Origin: a virus
DNA length: 40,035 bases
Strand: one strand, 5' to 3'
UHGV virus genome: UHGV-0090445
How positions within the stretch are numbered: the first letter of the stretch is position 1; the number at the start of each line of letters is the position of its first letter. Positions 21,497 through 26,639 of the stretch are shown piece by piece. The notes under the pieces are model-generated. The model saw only the letters and a list, made by a program, of their open reading frames with translations. It had not been told where the DNA came from and did not search any database. A program made the position numbers and the translations under genes.

Positions 21497-22027
21497 TCAC
21501 ACCATTCCGGGCAAATACATTTGCACTTCATTTGCCGCTCTCTCACGTGCAACATGAAGCAATCTTTTTCGCCCACCAACGCCCCACTTAGCCATTTGGC
21601 TTGCGCACTGGCTTATCGCTTTGGTTTCAGTATTGATGATGTGATCGATTCTATTCAGACGGGACATTGCGCCAACGCCGAGACGGACAACCGTTTTGAA
21701 AACTTCATAAACTTCGATTTCAAATTCCGGCTTAATCCATGCTGCATATCTGATTGCCAGAAGTTCAACACCCCACACACCTGGTTCTGCACCACCTTTG
21801 ATTATTTTAAGTGGTTGAATTTGTTCCAAAGTGCTTTTTTGCACTTTGGCCTCCAGTGCTTTTATGAAGCGTTTTATCTGCGCGCTACGCAAAAACTGGC
21901 TTGGGCGCTGTTGCTCTGTAGCCTCTCCATTTGCAACTGCTGCTGCATGGAGATCGTTTAAGTTGTAGCGTCCATCCTCATTAACACGAACGGACACACC
22001 ATTGACAATAACTGTTGGGTGCTTCAT
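21497..22027 (-). CDS. KilA-N domain-like protein
   Basis: 176 aa; N-terminal TVIVNGVSVRVNEDGRYNLNDLH...GVWGVELLAIRYAAWIKPEFE resembles KilA-N/APSES-type DNA-binding domains. Confidence 0.55.
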   Translation of the reverse strand: MKHPTVIVNGVSVRVNEDGRYNLNDLHAAAVANGEATEQQRPSQFLRSAQIKRFIKALEAKVQKSTLEQIQPLKIIKGGAEPGVWGVELLAIRYAAWIKPEFEIEVYEVFKTVVRLGVGAMSRLNRIDHIINTETKAISQCASQMAKWGVGGRKRLLHVARERAANEVQMYLPGMV

Positions 22028-22371: not shown

Positions 22372-22809
22372 TCATCGAAGGCATTGCGTCATGATGTACT
22401 CCTGCAGGTAGTTAACCTGCGCGGTTATCCTGTCGATTCCGCTTCGGAGACGGTAATAATTGAGTTCAGCATCTGCTGTAAGTCTTGGGCTTTCTCCATC
22501 GCCCATGCTGCTGGCTCCGGTCGTTGACTTTGCACAGGTGGCGGCGACTTGCAGCCGCTTACGCCCAGCAGAAACATCATCACGGAGACTTTCGATAGTC
22601 GCGTTAGCATCAGCAAGCTCCTTTGTGTATCTGGCGTCGAGTTCTGCTACATCACGTTGACGCTTCTGCATGTCAGCGATTGTGGATGTGGCCTTATCGC
22701 GCTGCTCTTTGTAGGCGATTGCGTTATCACGGTAATGATTAACAGCCCATGACAGGCAGACGATGATACAGATAACCAGAGCAGAGATAATCGCGGTTAC
22801 TCTGCTCAT
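22372..22809 (-). CDS. Rz: Spanin inner-membrane subunit Rz (lambda-like)
   Basis: [31 protein letters not shown]... matches remembered lambda Rz N-terminus; follows endolysin with overlap. Confidence 0.9.
22425..22616 (-). CDS. Rz1: Spanin outer-membrane lipoprotein Rz1, embedded in Rz in the +1 frame
   Basis: 63-aa ORF wholly inside Rz; lipobox LLGVSGC followed by Pro-rich segment ([12 protein letters not shown]), as in lambda Rz1. Confidence 0.8.
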
Positions 22810-23282
22810 ACCTCAATCTCTCTGACCGCTCCGCCAGCCTCTTTGAATTTTGCAATCAGGCTGTCAGCCTTATGCTCGAACTGGCCATAACCAGCACCCG
22901 GCAGTGAAGCCCAGATATTGCTGCAACGGTCGATAGCCTGACGGATATCACCGCGATCAATCATCGGTAAAGCGCCACGCTCTTTAATCTGTTGCAGTGC
23001 CACAGCGTCCTGGCTTTTCGGAGAGAAATCTTTCAGGCCAAGCTGCTTACGATAGGCATCCCACCAACGGGAAAGAAGCTGGTAACGGCCTGCAGCTGTT
23101 GATTTGAGTTTGGGGTTTAGCGTGACAAGTTTGCGAGGGTGATCTGAGTAATCAGTGAATAGCTCTCCGCCTACAATGACGTCATAACCATGATTTCTGG
23201 TTTTCTGACGTCCGTTATCAGTTCCCTCTGACCACGCCAGCATATCGAGGAACGCCTTACGTTGATTATTGATTTCCACCAT
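22806..23282 (-). CDS. R: Endolysin, lambda R-type lytic transglycosylase
   Basis: 158 aa; [39 protein letters not shown]... near-identical to remembered lambda R. Confidence 0.95.
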
Positions 23283-23589
23283 CTTCTACTCCGGCTTTTT
23301 TAGCAGCGAAGCGTTTGATAAGCGAACCAATCGAGTCAGTACCGATGTAGCCGATGAACACGCTAGTTATATAAGCGAGATTGCTACTTAGTCCGGCGAA
23401 GTCGAGAAGGTCACGAATGAACCAGGCGATAATGGCGCACATCGTTGCGTCGATTACTGTTTTTGTAAACGCACCGCCATTATACCTGCCGCGAAGGTAC
23501 GCCATTGCAAACGCAAGGATTGCCCCGATGCCTTGTTCCTTTGCCGCGAGAATGGCGGCTAACAGGTCATGTTTTTCTGGCATCTTCAT
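23266..23589 (-). CDS. S: Holin, lambda S-type (dual start MKMPEK)
   Basis: 107 aa; [64 protein letters not shown] matches remembered lambda S. Confidence 0.95.
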
Positions 23590-23985
23590 GTCTTACCCCC
23601 AATAAGGGGATTTGCTCTATTTAATTAGGAATAAGGTCGATTACTGATAGAACAAATCCAGGCTACTGTGTTTAGTAATCAGATTTGTTCGTGGCCGATA
23701 TGCACGGGCAAAACGGCAGGAGGTTGTTAGCGCGACCTCCTGTCACCCGCTTTCACGAAGATCATGTGTAGAAGGCCGCAGCGTAACTATCACTGATGAA
23801 TTCAGGATAGCCAGTGGATACGGCTCAGTTTGGGTTGTGCTGTTGCTGGTCGGCGATGACGCCTGTACGCATTTGGTGATCCGGTTCTGCTTCCGGTATT
23901 CGCTTAATTCAGCACAACGGAAAGAGCACTCAATGCATTTAAGCCAAGCCCCATAAGGGAGAATGCTCTTACCTGTTGTGCAAAC

Positions 23986-24027
23986 AAAAAAAGCCACCGT
24001 TGCAACTTAAGAGTCACTAACGGCAGC
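23986..24027 (-). terminator. tR'-like intrinsic terminator in the late leader, 46 nt downstream of Q
   Basis: Minus strand GCUGCCGUU-(17-nt loop)-AACGGUGGC followed by TTTTTTTG; sequence after the T-tract resembles the remembered lambda tR'-to-S leader. Confidence 0.4.
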
Positions 24028-24072
24028 TTATGTGAATAGTGTTGCTCATTTGCTCAATGATGTCAATACGTT

Positions 24073-24561
24073 CTATGCTACATGTTTAATTTTCTCTACA
24101 CGTTTCCGGTTTTTAAACGCACTATCCAGAACCGGATAAATCATAAACAACGAGGCATTGAGGATTTCGTCAACTTCCCGGCGACAGGTTGCGAGCGATG
24201 GTTTTTGAATGCGCCCGCCGCCCCGGCATAACATCTTGCGAGGTCTTGCGACACGATGATAGTAAGATGCAATGGCGTGCTTGGAAGATCCATGAGCGTA
24301 GTAGCTGAGGAGGATGCCAAAGGCTTTCTTGTCAATGTACATGACGGAATCGACGACCTGAGAAATCAACATTCCATCATCATCATTACACATTGGCCTT
24401 GTCATAACTCTTCCCGGCTCTACGCTCTCCATGAACTTCGCTATTACGCTGCTCATGCGCTTTTCCAGACGACCTGAATAAACCCATGCGCCCCACAGTT
24501 CAAGCCAGCCATTCAGCCACTCGTGCTGTTCTTTGGTGAGGTTTAGTTCTCTTATGCTCAT
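24073..24561 (-). CDS. Late-gene antiterminator Q (non-lambda type)
   Basis: 162 aa ORF immediately upstream of the late leader and S; Cys/His-containing C-terminal half; assigned by position and general Q-family resemblance. Confidence 0.75.
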   Translation of the reverse strand: MSIRELNLTKEQHEWLNGWLELWGAWVYSGRLEKRMSSVIAKFMESVEPGRVMTRPMCNDDDGMLISQVVDSVMYIDKKAFGILLSYYAHGSSKHAIASYYHRVARPRKMLCRGGGRIQKPSLATCRREVDEILNASLFMIYPVLDSAFKNRKRVEKIKHVA

Positions 24562-24746
24562 CGTCTTCCCCTCTTGCCCTGTTTGACCATCAGGACGCCG
24601 TTAACTATTACTTGACGCTCGCCTTTGCTGTCTCGGTTGTACTTGAGCACTGTTCCTCTTGCGCAGGAAAGCATCCTCGCCACTTCGGTCTGATTGCCTC
24701 GTGTCTGGATAAGAAGCTCTGGTATCGTTTGAATTGTGGCGTTCAT
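24558..24746 (-). CDS. ninH: NinH-like protein
   Basis: TIPELLIQTRGNQTEVARMLSCARGTVLKYNRD resembles lambda NinH (GNQTEVARRLKCSRGTVRKY). Confidence 0.8.
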   Translation of the reverse strand: MNATIQTIPELLIQTRGNQTEVARMLSCARGTVLKYNRDSKGERQVIVNGVLMVKQGKRGRR

Positions 24747-25105
24747 GCGTTCTCCAGTTCGGTGATTTTTATTCCAAGCCGTCCGCCTGGTACTTTCACG
24801 CCACGAATTACGCGAATGTCATCGAATTGCTCGTCATCTTCCGCAAATCCGGCGTGGATAAGGGAGTCGAGTAAACCTTTCAGGATGTTATCGAGGTCGC
24901 GGCGGCGGGAGTCTGGAACGTCTGCGATGACTTTGATGCGGAGTCGTGATTTGGTGAAAATGTCTAACTTAAGTTGGCGGATGATTTGCTGAACGTCTTT
25001 TCGGCATTTCTGGCCTTTATCGCTTATGTAATATTGGCTTCCCCGTCTTCGCCAGTAGGTATTCAGCGACGGTGGGTACGGAAGTGTGAATCTGTATTCT
25101 GCCAT
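24743..25105 (-). CDS. rusA: RusA-type Holliday junction resolvase
   Basis: 120 aa; FTLPYPPSLNTYWRR...DSRRRDLDNILKGLLDSLIHAGF...GGRLGIKITELE matches the RusA pattern. Confidence 0.85.
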   Translation of the reverse strand: MAEYRFTLPYPPSLNTYWRRRGSQYYISDKGQKCRKDVQQIIRQLKLDIFTKSRLRIKVIADVPDSRRRDLDNILKGLLDSLIHAGFAEDDEQFDDIRVIRGVKVPGGRLGIKITELENA

Positions 25106-25630
25106 TTATCCTCTCCCATGATTATGGTGATAGCCCAATCGTGATTCCGCCAATTTTCTGGCATTAACGGCTAGAGATATGTCATCGTATAATCCAAGAA
25201 ATATCTTTTTATTATCACTGTTTATATATGCACCCCACTTTTTATTCTTCTTATAGTAGGCAACACCAATTACTCCAGAGCGATTATTAATAGGCTTTTT
25301 TCTGTTCCTTGAGTTCTGTTTATCATCTACAACGCGCAAATTGCATATTCTGTTATCGCTTTTAATTCCATTTATGTGGTCAATTTCCCCATCAGGTTCA
25401 CTTCCATAAAAGGATATCCATGCGATTCTATGAGCTCGACAAACTTTTTTATTTACAGATATACGAACGTATCCTTTTTCATCTATAGAACCAGCAATCT
25501 TACCGGCATATGTTGAATTCCAGCACTCTCTTACACTTTCTCTTCTCTTGTATATAAACAAACCTGTTTCGCTATTATATTCATACAATTCATTGATTTC
25601 TTTTTGTGTTGGATATCTTTTACCGTTCAT
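25106..25630 (-). CDS. HNH homing endonuclease (HNH plus AP2-like region), AT-rich insertion
   Basis: 174 aa; HRIAWISFYGSEPDGEIDHINGIKSDNRICNLRVV (HNH motif), followed by GVIGVAYYKKNKKWGAYI (AP2-like); AT-rich by eye; wedged between ybcO-like and rusA. Confidence 0.8.
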   Translation of the reverse strand: MNGKRYPTQKEINELYEYNSETGLFIYKRRESVRECWNSTYAGKIAGSIDEKGYVRISVNKKVCRAHRIAWISFYGSEPDGEIDHINGIKSDNRICNLRVVDDKQNSRNRKKPINNRSGVIGVAYYKKNKKWGAYINSDNKKIFLGLYDDISLAVNARKLAESRLGYHHNHGRG

Positions 25631-25917
25631 GGCTTAATCTTCCCCTCCTTCAGCAGTATCGCCTGCGTCCTGATCACGCCTTCGAGGTGGTAAAGTCTGG
25701 CGTCTTTGTTGTCGAGAATCATTGTGCGTCGGTCGATTTCATCGTGACACGCGCTACAAGCCCATGCGCCGATCAGGTCGTCAGGCTTCATTCCAGTTCC
25801 GCAAATTCCAGCCATCCGGTAATGTGCCAGAACTGTGGTTTCAGGATTACCATTGCATACTCCGTAAATACGTACCTGGCATTCTCTGCCGCGCGCTTCT
25901 TTGCGTAGGTTAGCCAT
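25627..25917 (-). CDS. YbcO-like (DUF1364) nin-region protein
   Basis: 96 aa with Cys/His cluster (CQVRIYGVC...AHYR...WACSACHDEID); resembles remembered DLP12 YbcO family; neighbours RusA. Confidence 0.65.
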   Translation of the reverse strand: MANLRKEARGRECQVRIYGVCNGNPETTVLAHYRMAGICGTGMKPDDLIGAWACSACHDEIDRRTMILDNKDARLYHLEGVIRTQAILLKEGKIKP

Positions 25918-26639
25918 TAAGCAGCCTCCCCTGTTACTTTCAGCATTCCGTTATCGAGCAGCTTTCTGGTCAGCCACTGTTGACCACGCCCGGTGATTTT
26001 TGTGGTGAACGATATCTGTATTCCGTGATTTGTGTTGACCGCTGTTTCTTTCACTGTGAAATAGCCGCGATCCATATATTCCTGCATTGGCACATTGCGC
26101 CGGGAACCTGAAGCAATAAGGATTTTGTGATCGCGCATCCACGCAAACAGTTTGTTTTGACCAATTCCAACAACCTTTGCAAAGTTTCCAATCAAAATTC
26201 CACTGGCCTCGCCAACGCGATCGGCAAACTCAACTTTAGGTGCGGCAATTGCGAGCTGGTTTTCCAGTTGCATTTTCTGCTCAGCAAGGTCAGCAGCAAG
26301 GCGCAACGCTTCTGGTAGCGTTTTGGGGATATTAACCGCAGCTTCTTCAAGCTCTCGCCAACGGTCAACAAGACGAGCGGTGAACTCTGGCGACAACTGG
26401 GCCACAACGACAATACTGTCTCGCTTTCCTTGTTCGCCTTCGAATACATACACACAAAAACTTTGATTTAAGCCTAACCCATTGATTCTTCCACAATCCT
26501 CAATTTGAGGAAGCCGGATAACACCATTTTTAGCCAGCGTTTCGATGGTACGTTTAACATTGTCATGACGCTTACCAACCAACTCAGCGATTTCAATGCT
26601 TGTCATTTTTATGGCATTGCCATTTATTAACTCATTCAT
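25917..26639 (-). CDS. Rha-family antirepressor with KilAC/ANT C-terminal domain
   Basis: 240 aa; N-terminal SIEIAELVGKRHDNVKRTIETL (Rha-like HTH region); C-terminal GILIGNFAKVVGIGQNKLFAWMRDHKIL (ANT/KilAC-like). Confidence 0.8.
   Translation of the reverse strand: MNELINGNAIKMTSIEIAELVGKRHDNVKRTIETLAKNGVIRLPQIEDCGRINGLGLNQSFCVYVFEGEQGKRDSIVVVAQLSPEFTARLVDRWRELEEAAVNIPKTLPEALRLAADLAEQKMQLENQLAIAAPKVEFADRVGEASGILIGNFAKVVGIGQNKLFAWMRDHKILIASGSRRNVPMQEYMDRGYFTVKETAVNTNHGIQISFTTKITGRGQQWLTRKLLDNGMLKVTGEAA

Follow-up and report, generated by a model that had tools for sequence, protein, structure and literature searches.

The closest described relative of the locus reported here is the late system of phage 21, which was reportedly characterised genetically in 1991 (Guo, Kainz & Roberts) and structurally in 2019. 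In this system the QBE is built of TGAGCA direct repeats, and positions −21 and −13 are C:G pairs (Shi et al., PMC6606751). Transcription from phage 21 pR' pauses 18 bp downstream of the start; pausing has been placed at +18 in phage 21 and at +16/17 in lambda (PMC9191641). A ring or 'nozzle' mechanism has been described for Q21 (10.1101/651190, PMC6606751), and published assays of Q21 antitermination in vitro have relied on phage 21 tR' as their terminator (PMC6606751). StxS is a short RNA from an antiterminated pR', and phage 21 is listed among the phages that make such RNAs (PMC7547250).

The window, which is the whole 40,035-nt stretch of virus genome UHGV-0090445 that was analysed, is as a whole a P22-like prophage or phage; across its portal, terminase, coat and replication genes the match to vB_EcoP-720R6, CUS-3, Kapi1 and relatives is about 96%. 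All genes in its late-switch and lysis part are carried on the minus strand, in the following order.

24746..24558, minus strand: ninH, directly upstream of Q
24561..24073, minus strand: gene Q of the phage 21 type (Q21), 162 amino acids, stop codon TAG at 24075..24073
24072..23590, minus strand: non-coding leader of 483 nt between Q and S
23589..23266, minus strand: holin gene S of the lambda type with a Met-Lys-Met dual start (Pfam PF05106)
23282..22806, minus strand: R
22809..22372, minus strand: Rz

From sequence comparison, this cassette is almost certainly a phage 21-type Q antitermination system, in a P22-like E. coli prophage, that has been joined at the T tract of its terminator to a lambda-type late leader and lysis cassette.

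Several other ORFs lie close to the late switch. A 174-amino-acid HNH_3 endonuclease ORF (25630..25106, minus strand) is located between a YbcO-like nuclease gene (25917..25627) and rusA (25105..24743), and resembles an insertion of the homing-endonuclease type into the nin region; an HNH endonuclease is also annotated in HK629 within its match to the ninH-to-S stretch. Upstream of the nin genes there is an ANT/Rha antirepressor-like ORF (26639..25917, minus strand), and just downstream of Rz a KilA-N domain ORF (22027..21497, minus strand). These two accessory genes bracket the late switch and lysis cassette.

The Q protein of the window was identical at 161 of 162 residues to the phage 21 Q in PDB entries 6JNX/6JNY and 6P18/6P19/6P1A-C. 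The sole difference is at residue 2, which is S in the window and G in the PDB chains. Q belongs to Pfam family PF06530 (E = 8.8e-25), and BLASTP found no similarity between it and lambda Q (E = 4.8), in agreement with the original prediction, which had been made from the letters of the window and had stated that this Q is not that of lambda. At the DNA level, Q and the sequence after it, through the last T of the T tract, were 98.1% identical to the phage 21 genome OL657228. One further element was found by a pattern scan inside Q, on the opposite strand.

24236..24268, plus strand: paQ antisense promoter with a putative CII-binding site (TTGCGAGGTCTTGC), followed by the −10 element TAAGAT

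The pattern of TTGCGAGGTCTTGC plus TAAGAT occurs once in the window, where 0.02 occurrences were expected by chance, and its position corresponds to that of paQ and its CII site in the annotation of OL657228.

OL657228 carries annotations for the pR' −35, QBEu, QBEd, the −10, the late TSS, the SDPE and the terminator. The coordinates of the late-switch elements were obtained by transferring these annotations to the window, and all of them were colinear.

24066..24061, minus strand: pR' −35 (TTGACA), starting 7 nt past the Q stop codon, identical to the minus_35_signal of OL657228
24058..24051, minus strand: QBEu (ATTGAGCA), identical to the annotated QBE of OL657228
24050..24043, minus strand: QBEd (AATGAGCA), identical to the annotated QBE of OL657228
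24043..24038, minus strand: pR' −10 (AACACT), with a 17-bp spacer and its first base in common with QBEd, identical to the minus_10_signal of OL657228
24031, minus strand: late transcription start +1, an A, to which the late-promoter TSS of OL657228 maps
24030..24024, minus strand: SDPE (TAAGCTG), the −10-like pause element at +2..+8, identical to the annotated SDPE of OL657228 (a sequence match only)
24029..23986, minus strand: tR' intrinsic terminator, hairpin plus T7, with the OL657228 terminator mapping to 24029..23982

Every sequence element was computed here to be identical to that of phage 21. Between the Q stop codon and the last T of T7, a stretch of 90 bases, two positions differ from OL657228, both outside the annotated elements. 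The first is an A for G at 24067, upstream of the −35 (about −37), and the second is an A for G at 24033, position −2. The A at −2 and the lambda-type sequence past the T tract could slightly alter start-site choice or termination efficiency.

QBEu and QBEd (24058..24043) are 8-bp direct repeats containing TGAGCA and lie between the −35 and the −10. Their repeat pattern, TGAGCANNTGAGCA, has a single occurrence in the 40-kb window. With +1 placed at 24031, positions −21 (24052) and −13 (24044) are both C, which agrees with the numbering in PMC6606751, and the QBE oligonucleotide GCAAATGAGCAACA of that study is found verbatim in the window. In the older phage 21 record AJ237660 the short RNA begins at the same A as window position 24031. 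This record reads CAAGTAGCAAC at 820-830, where OL657228 and the window have CAAATGAGCAAC, and the older entry therefore has no intact QBEd, which is probably a sequencing error. A consensus promoter and terminator scan of 23200..24700 flagged neither pR' nor tR', a false negative in both cases: the promoter was missed because its −10, AACACT, has only 3 of the 6 bases of TATAAT, and the terminator because its stem has a bulge.

The original prediction had placed a terminator 46 nt past the Q stop, and the distance is as given (24073 − 24027 = 46). It had suggested that the late promoter and qut might overlap the 3' end of the Q coding sequence. Such an arrangement does exist in the 172-amino-acid Q variant of HK75, Sf6 and CUS-3, in which the ORF crosses the −35 and the annotated pR' overlaps the end of Q. 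In the window, however, Q stops at 24073 and the −35 begins at 24066, and the stop codon precedes every element that is annotated in phage 21. The promoter, both QBE repeats and the start site fill the 46-nt gap, so that the promoter and qut fit wholly between Q and the hairpin, and we consider an overlap with Q exceedingly improbable.

The hairpin plus T7 that had been predicted at 23986..24027 was found at exactly these positions. ViennaRNA folded 24029..23991 into a hairpin of 17 pairs with one bulge and a 4-nt loop; the G+C-rich core of the stem is 24027..23993 and T7 occupies 23992..23986. The fold has a ΔG of −20.2 kcal/mol against a shuffle mean of −8.6 (z = −5.5), and 0 of 200 shuffles were as good. 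Hairpin and T7 are base-for-base those of the annotated phage 21 terminator, for which OL657228 cites PMID 1704887. The SDPE overlaps the 5' arm of this hairpin, and only 46 nt separate +1 from the end of the T tract. As the pause element at +2..+8 also starts the 5' arm, the RNA released at the U tract would be about 44–46 nt long and not 194 nt. It would consist almost wholly of the terminator hairpin, with 2 unpaired 5' nucleotides. Rfam at its gathering threshold gave zero matches over the whole window, so no curated family covers the short RNA or the leader.

Further downstream, a second hairpin followed by a short T run (23745..23715) is conserved with lambda, where tandem termination sites downstream of tR' were reportedly described by Luk and Szybalski in 1983. 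The hairpin at 24029..23991 might accordingly not be the functional tR', and a terminator such as 23745..23715 might end a longer, 6S-like RNA. Against this, the first hairpin has a strong stem and a U7 tract, it is identical to the annotated phage 21 tR', which was the terminator of the antitermination assays (PMC6606751), and 76 of the 80 Q21 loci sampled have conserved it, some with T6; the downstream hairpin has a 4-U run only and a z of −2.3. A downstream tR' is thus very unlikely, and the hairpin directly after the start site is taken as tR'. As a whole, the original prediction was right that a non-lambda Q has been joined to a lambda leader and that a lambda-style 194-nt 6S RNA is impossible here, and both of the alternatives it offered for the position of the promoter and for the role of the hairpin proved wrong.

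Aligned with the late regions of phage 21 and lambda, the locus was homologous to phage 21 up to the T tract and to lambda after it.

23985..23982, minus strand: mosaic joint, between phage 21 homology, which stops at the T tract, and lambda homology, which starts with TGCACAAC
23982..23590, minus strand: lambda-type late leader, corresponding to lambda 44785..45185
23745..23715, minus strand: second hairpin (GCAGGAGGT..ACCTCCTGC) followed by CGTTTTG, common with lambda (about 45030..45060)

The base directly after T7 is G in the window and A in phage 21. Past the T tract, phage 21 reads ATTTGGGTCAG..., which is the start of tRNA-Asn and is followed by tRNA-Thr and the S21 pinholin. The window reads GTT TGCACAACAGGTAAGAGCATT, the sequence that comes after the T tract of lambda tR'. 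Since the sequence is of the phage 21 type up to the T tract and of the lambda type after it, the homology switches within four bases past the T tract. ARAGORN found no tRNA in the window, which rules out a tRNA leader of the phage 21/Sf6 type.

The predicted resemblance to lambda from about 23980 down to S was borne out. Positions 23982..23962 matched lambda 44785..44805 at 21 of 21 bases, which in lambda come directly after the T tract of tR'. The next 31 nt or so (23961..23931) were non-homologous to lambda, and 23930..23590 was again identical to lambda 44845..45185 at 331 of 341 positions (97.1%). The S protein, which begins MKM, shares 106 of 107 residues with lambda S. The whole leader folds with a z of −3.9.

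The leader opens with an inverted repeat, CACAACAGGTAAGAGCATT ... AGTGCTCTTTCCGTTGTG (23982..23915, minus strand), whose arms at 23982..23962 and 23930..23915 fold into a long hairpin. The arms are kept in the window, lambda, HK75 and JEP4, and the centre is wholly different in each lineage (31 to about 40 nt). This repeat may serve RNA processing or mark a hot spot of sequence replacement. The second hairpin (ΔG −20.2) is conserved in lambda, HK75, Sf6 and JEP4 and may act as a weak back-up terminator or as an element for RNA stability. Two candidate genes were rejected. An 84-amino-acid GTG ORF in the leader (23997..23743) had no Pfam match and was not accepted as a gene because it spans the joint and the variable patch; a counterpart of lambda orf-64 was also rejected, orf-64 being located in the lambda 6S region, which is absent from the window.

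The cassette is widespread. The same Q21 cassette followed by lambda-type sequence is found in phages JEP4 and S.Inf 5-2, with about 97% identity across the 86% of the query that aligned. Of 5426 complete E. coli genomes, 484 have a match that spans 80% or more of the ninH-Q-leader-S stretch, and the chromosome of E. coli G749, among others, contains the entire stretch at 99.6% identity. The closest full-length matches being chromosomal and the window prophage-like, the cassette might be a decayed, non-working remnant in a cryptic prophage. This is contradicted by an intact Q ORF essentially identical to that of active Q21, by the intactness of all cis elements and of S, R and Rz, and by the colinearity of the window (about 96%) with complete P22-like phages over the head and replication genes. 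We therefore give the decayed state very little credence and regard the cassette as an intact late switch.

A scan of IMG/VR gave at least 599 confirmed Q21 relatives, from which 80 loci with a Q of at least 98% identity were taken. Two of them (L056 and L079) end at the end of Q and hold no regulatory region, leaving 78. Within this sample the 29 nt from the −35 to the −10 were unchanged in 75 of the 78 loci, and the SDPE plus terminator was present with at most three mismatches in 76 of 78 (62 exact, 13 with one mismatch and 1 with three). Some of these 76 terminator-keeping loci have T6 instead of T7, and in the loci with an exact terminator most of the variation was at −3/−2. After the T tract, 55 of the 76 continue with the phage 21 tRNA type and 21 with the lambda type. 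About a quarter of the 80 sampled Q21 cassettes thus have a lambda-type continuation, and most others are of the phage 21 tRNA type.

One locus of this collection, IMGVR_UViG_3300045988_002451 (1696-1800), retains pR' and the QBE intact. Its initial transcribed region (TATGCT...) and its terminator hairpin (AGCCCAC CTCC CGTGGGCT plus T7) both differ, which gives a longer leader, and the lambda-type GTTTGCACAACAGG stands directly past its T tract.

What follows on initiation, pausing, Q binding and the ring comes from the phage 21 literature, as does the start site, and we infer by analogy that the elements of the window prophage would behave as in phage 21, the exact length of the terminated RNA included. 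Host sigma-70 RNA polymerase would initiate constitutively at pR' (+1 = 24031) and pause about 18 nt downstream, because sigma region 2 would re-bind the −10-like TAAGCT at +2..+7; the +18 pause would correspond to window position 24014. Without Q, transcription would terminate at the hairpin and U7, and an RNA of about 45 nt would be released. Once Q21 had accumulated, two protomers would occupy ATTGAGCA/AATGAGCA between the −35 and the −10 and engage the paused complex. Within the paused polymerase, the upstream protomer is expected to narrow the RNA exit channel by forming a ring there. By blocking formation of the pause or terminator hairpin, the ring would allow read-through of tR' and any later terminators, and transcription would reach S, R, Rz and the structural genes.

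Two further ideas are speculative and in our judgement improbable. The lysogeny RNA of about 45 nt might be functional like StxS of Shiga-toxin phages, for example with its hairpin and U-tail binding or titrating Hfq. The second idea is that Q-specificity cassettes may be swapped onto other late leaders preferentially by recombination at the T tract of tR'.

Compared with known systems, the window RNA resembles StxS as a constitutive pR' transcript terminated at tR' during lysogeny. StxS, however, is 74 nt long after processing, binds Hfq and has a seed region, whereas the window RNA would be nearly all terminator hairpin.

The late switch of the window would work on the same plan as the Q, pR', qut and tR' of lambda: the promoter is constitutive, sigma causes a pause close to it, the Q site is located between the −35 and the −10, and an intrinsic terminator precedes S. 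The leader is also 97% homologous from just past the terminator to S. The window differs in that its Q is unrelated in sequence, its pause element overlaps the terminator stem, and its terminated RNA would be about 45 nt long against 194 nt in lambda.

From the cassettes of the HK75/Sf6/CUS-3/HK620 type, stretches of HK75 (1036-1116) and Sf6 (1010-1093) were compared with 24066..23986 of the window. The −35, the SDPE and the terminator of this type are identical to those of the window, its 172-amino-acid Q is 85% identical to Q21, and HK75 and CUS-3 also have the same lambda-type sequence after the T tract. The Q proteins of HK75, Sf6 and CUS-3 are nearly identical to Q21 over the N-terminal 100 amino acids, whereas the C-terminal DNA-binding part has diverged; the changes include H95R and R128N, at two residues in contact with QBE bases according to Shi et al. 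(PMC6606751). The repeats between the −35 and the −10 are ATTATCCA/TTTAGCCA in the HK75 type against ATTGAGCA/AATGAGCA in the window, and the HK75-type Q ORF is 10 codons longer than that of the window and overlaps the promoter. Judged by these sequence differences, HK75, Sf6 and CUS-3 look like a co-varying Q/QBE specificity subtype.

The likeness to the phage 21 late region is greatest. Q agrees at 161 of 162 residues, the −35, both QBE, the −10, the start, the SDPE, the hairpin and T7 are identical with the same spacing, and the cassette occupies the same position just past the Q stop. The differences are two silent-looking base changes in the window (about −37, and −2) and the sequence after the T tract, which is tRNA-Asn, tRNA-Thr and the S21 pinholin in phage 21 and a lambda-type leader and S in the window. 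The comparison is of value mainly for precise annotation, the phage 21 late switch giving the promoter, the Q-binding repeats, the pause element and the terminator base by base, and the window is also a clean example of lambdoid mosaicism. As the phage 21 late switch has already been well studied, the feature described here is ordinary and not new: it is a known late switch, an unremarkable example of a cassette that is very common, in a mosaic arrangement that is also common.
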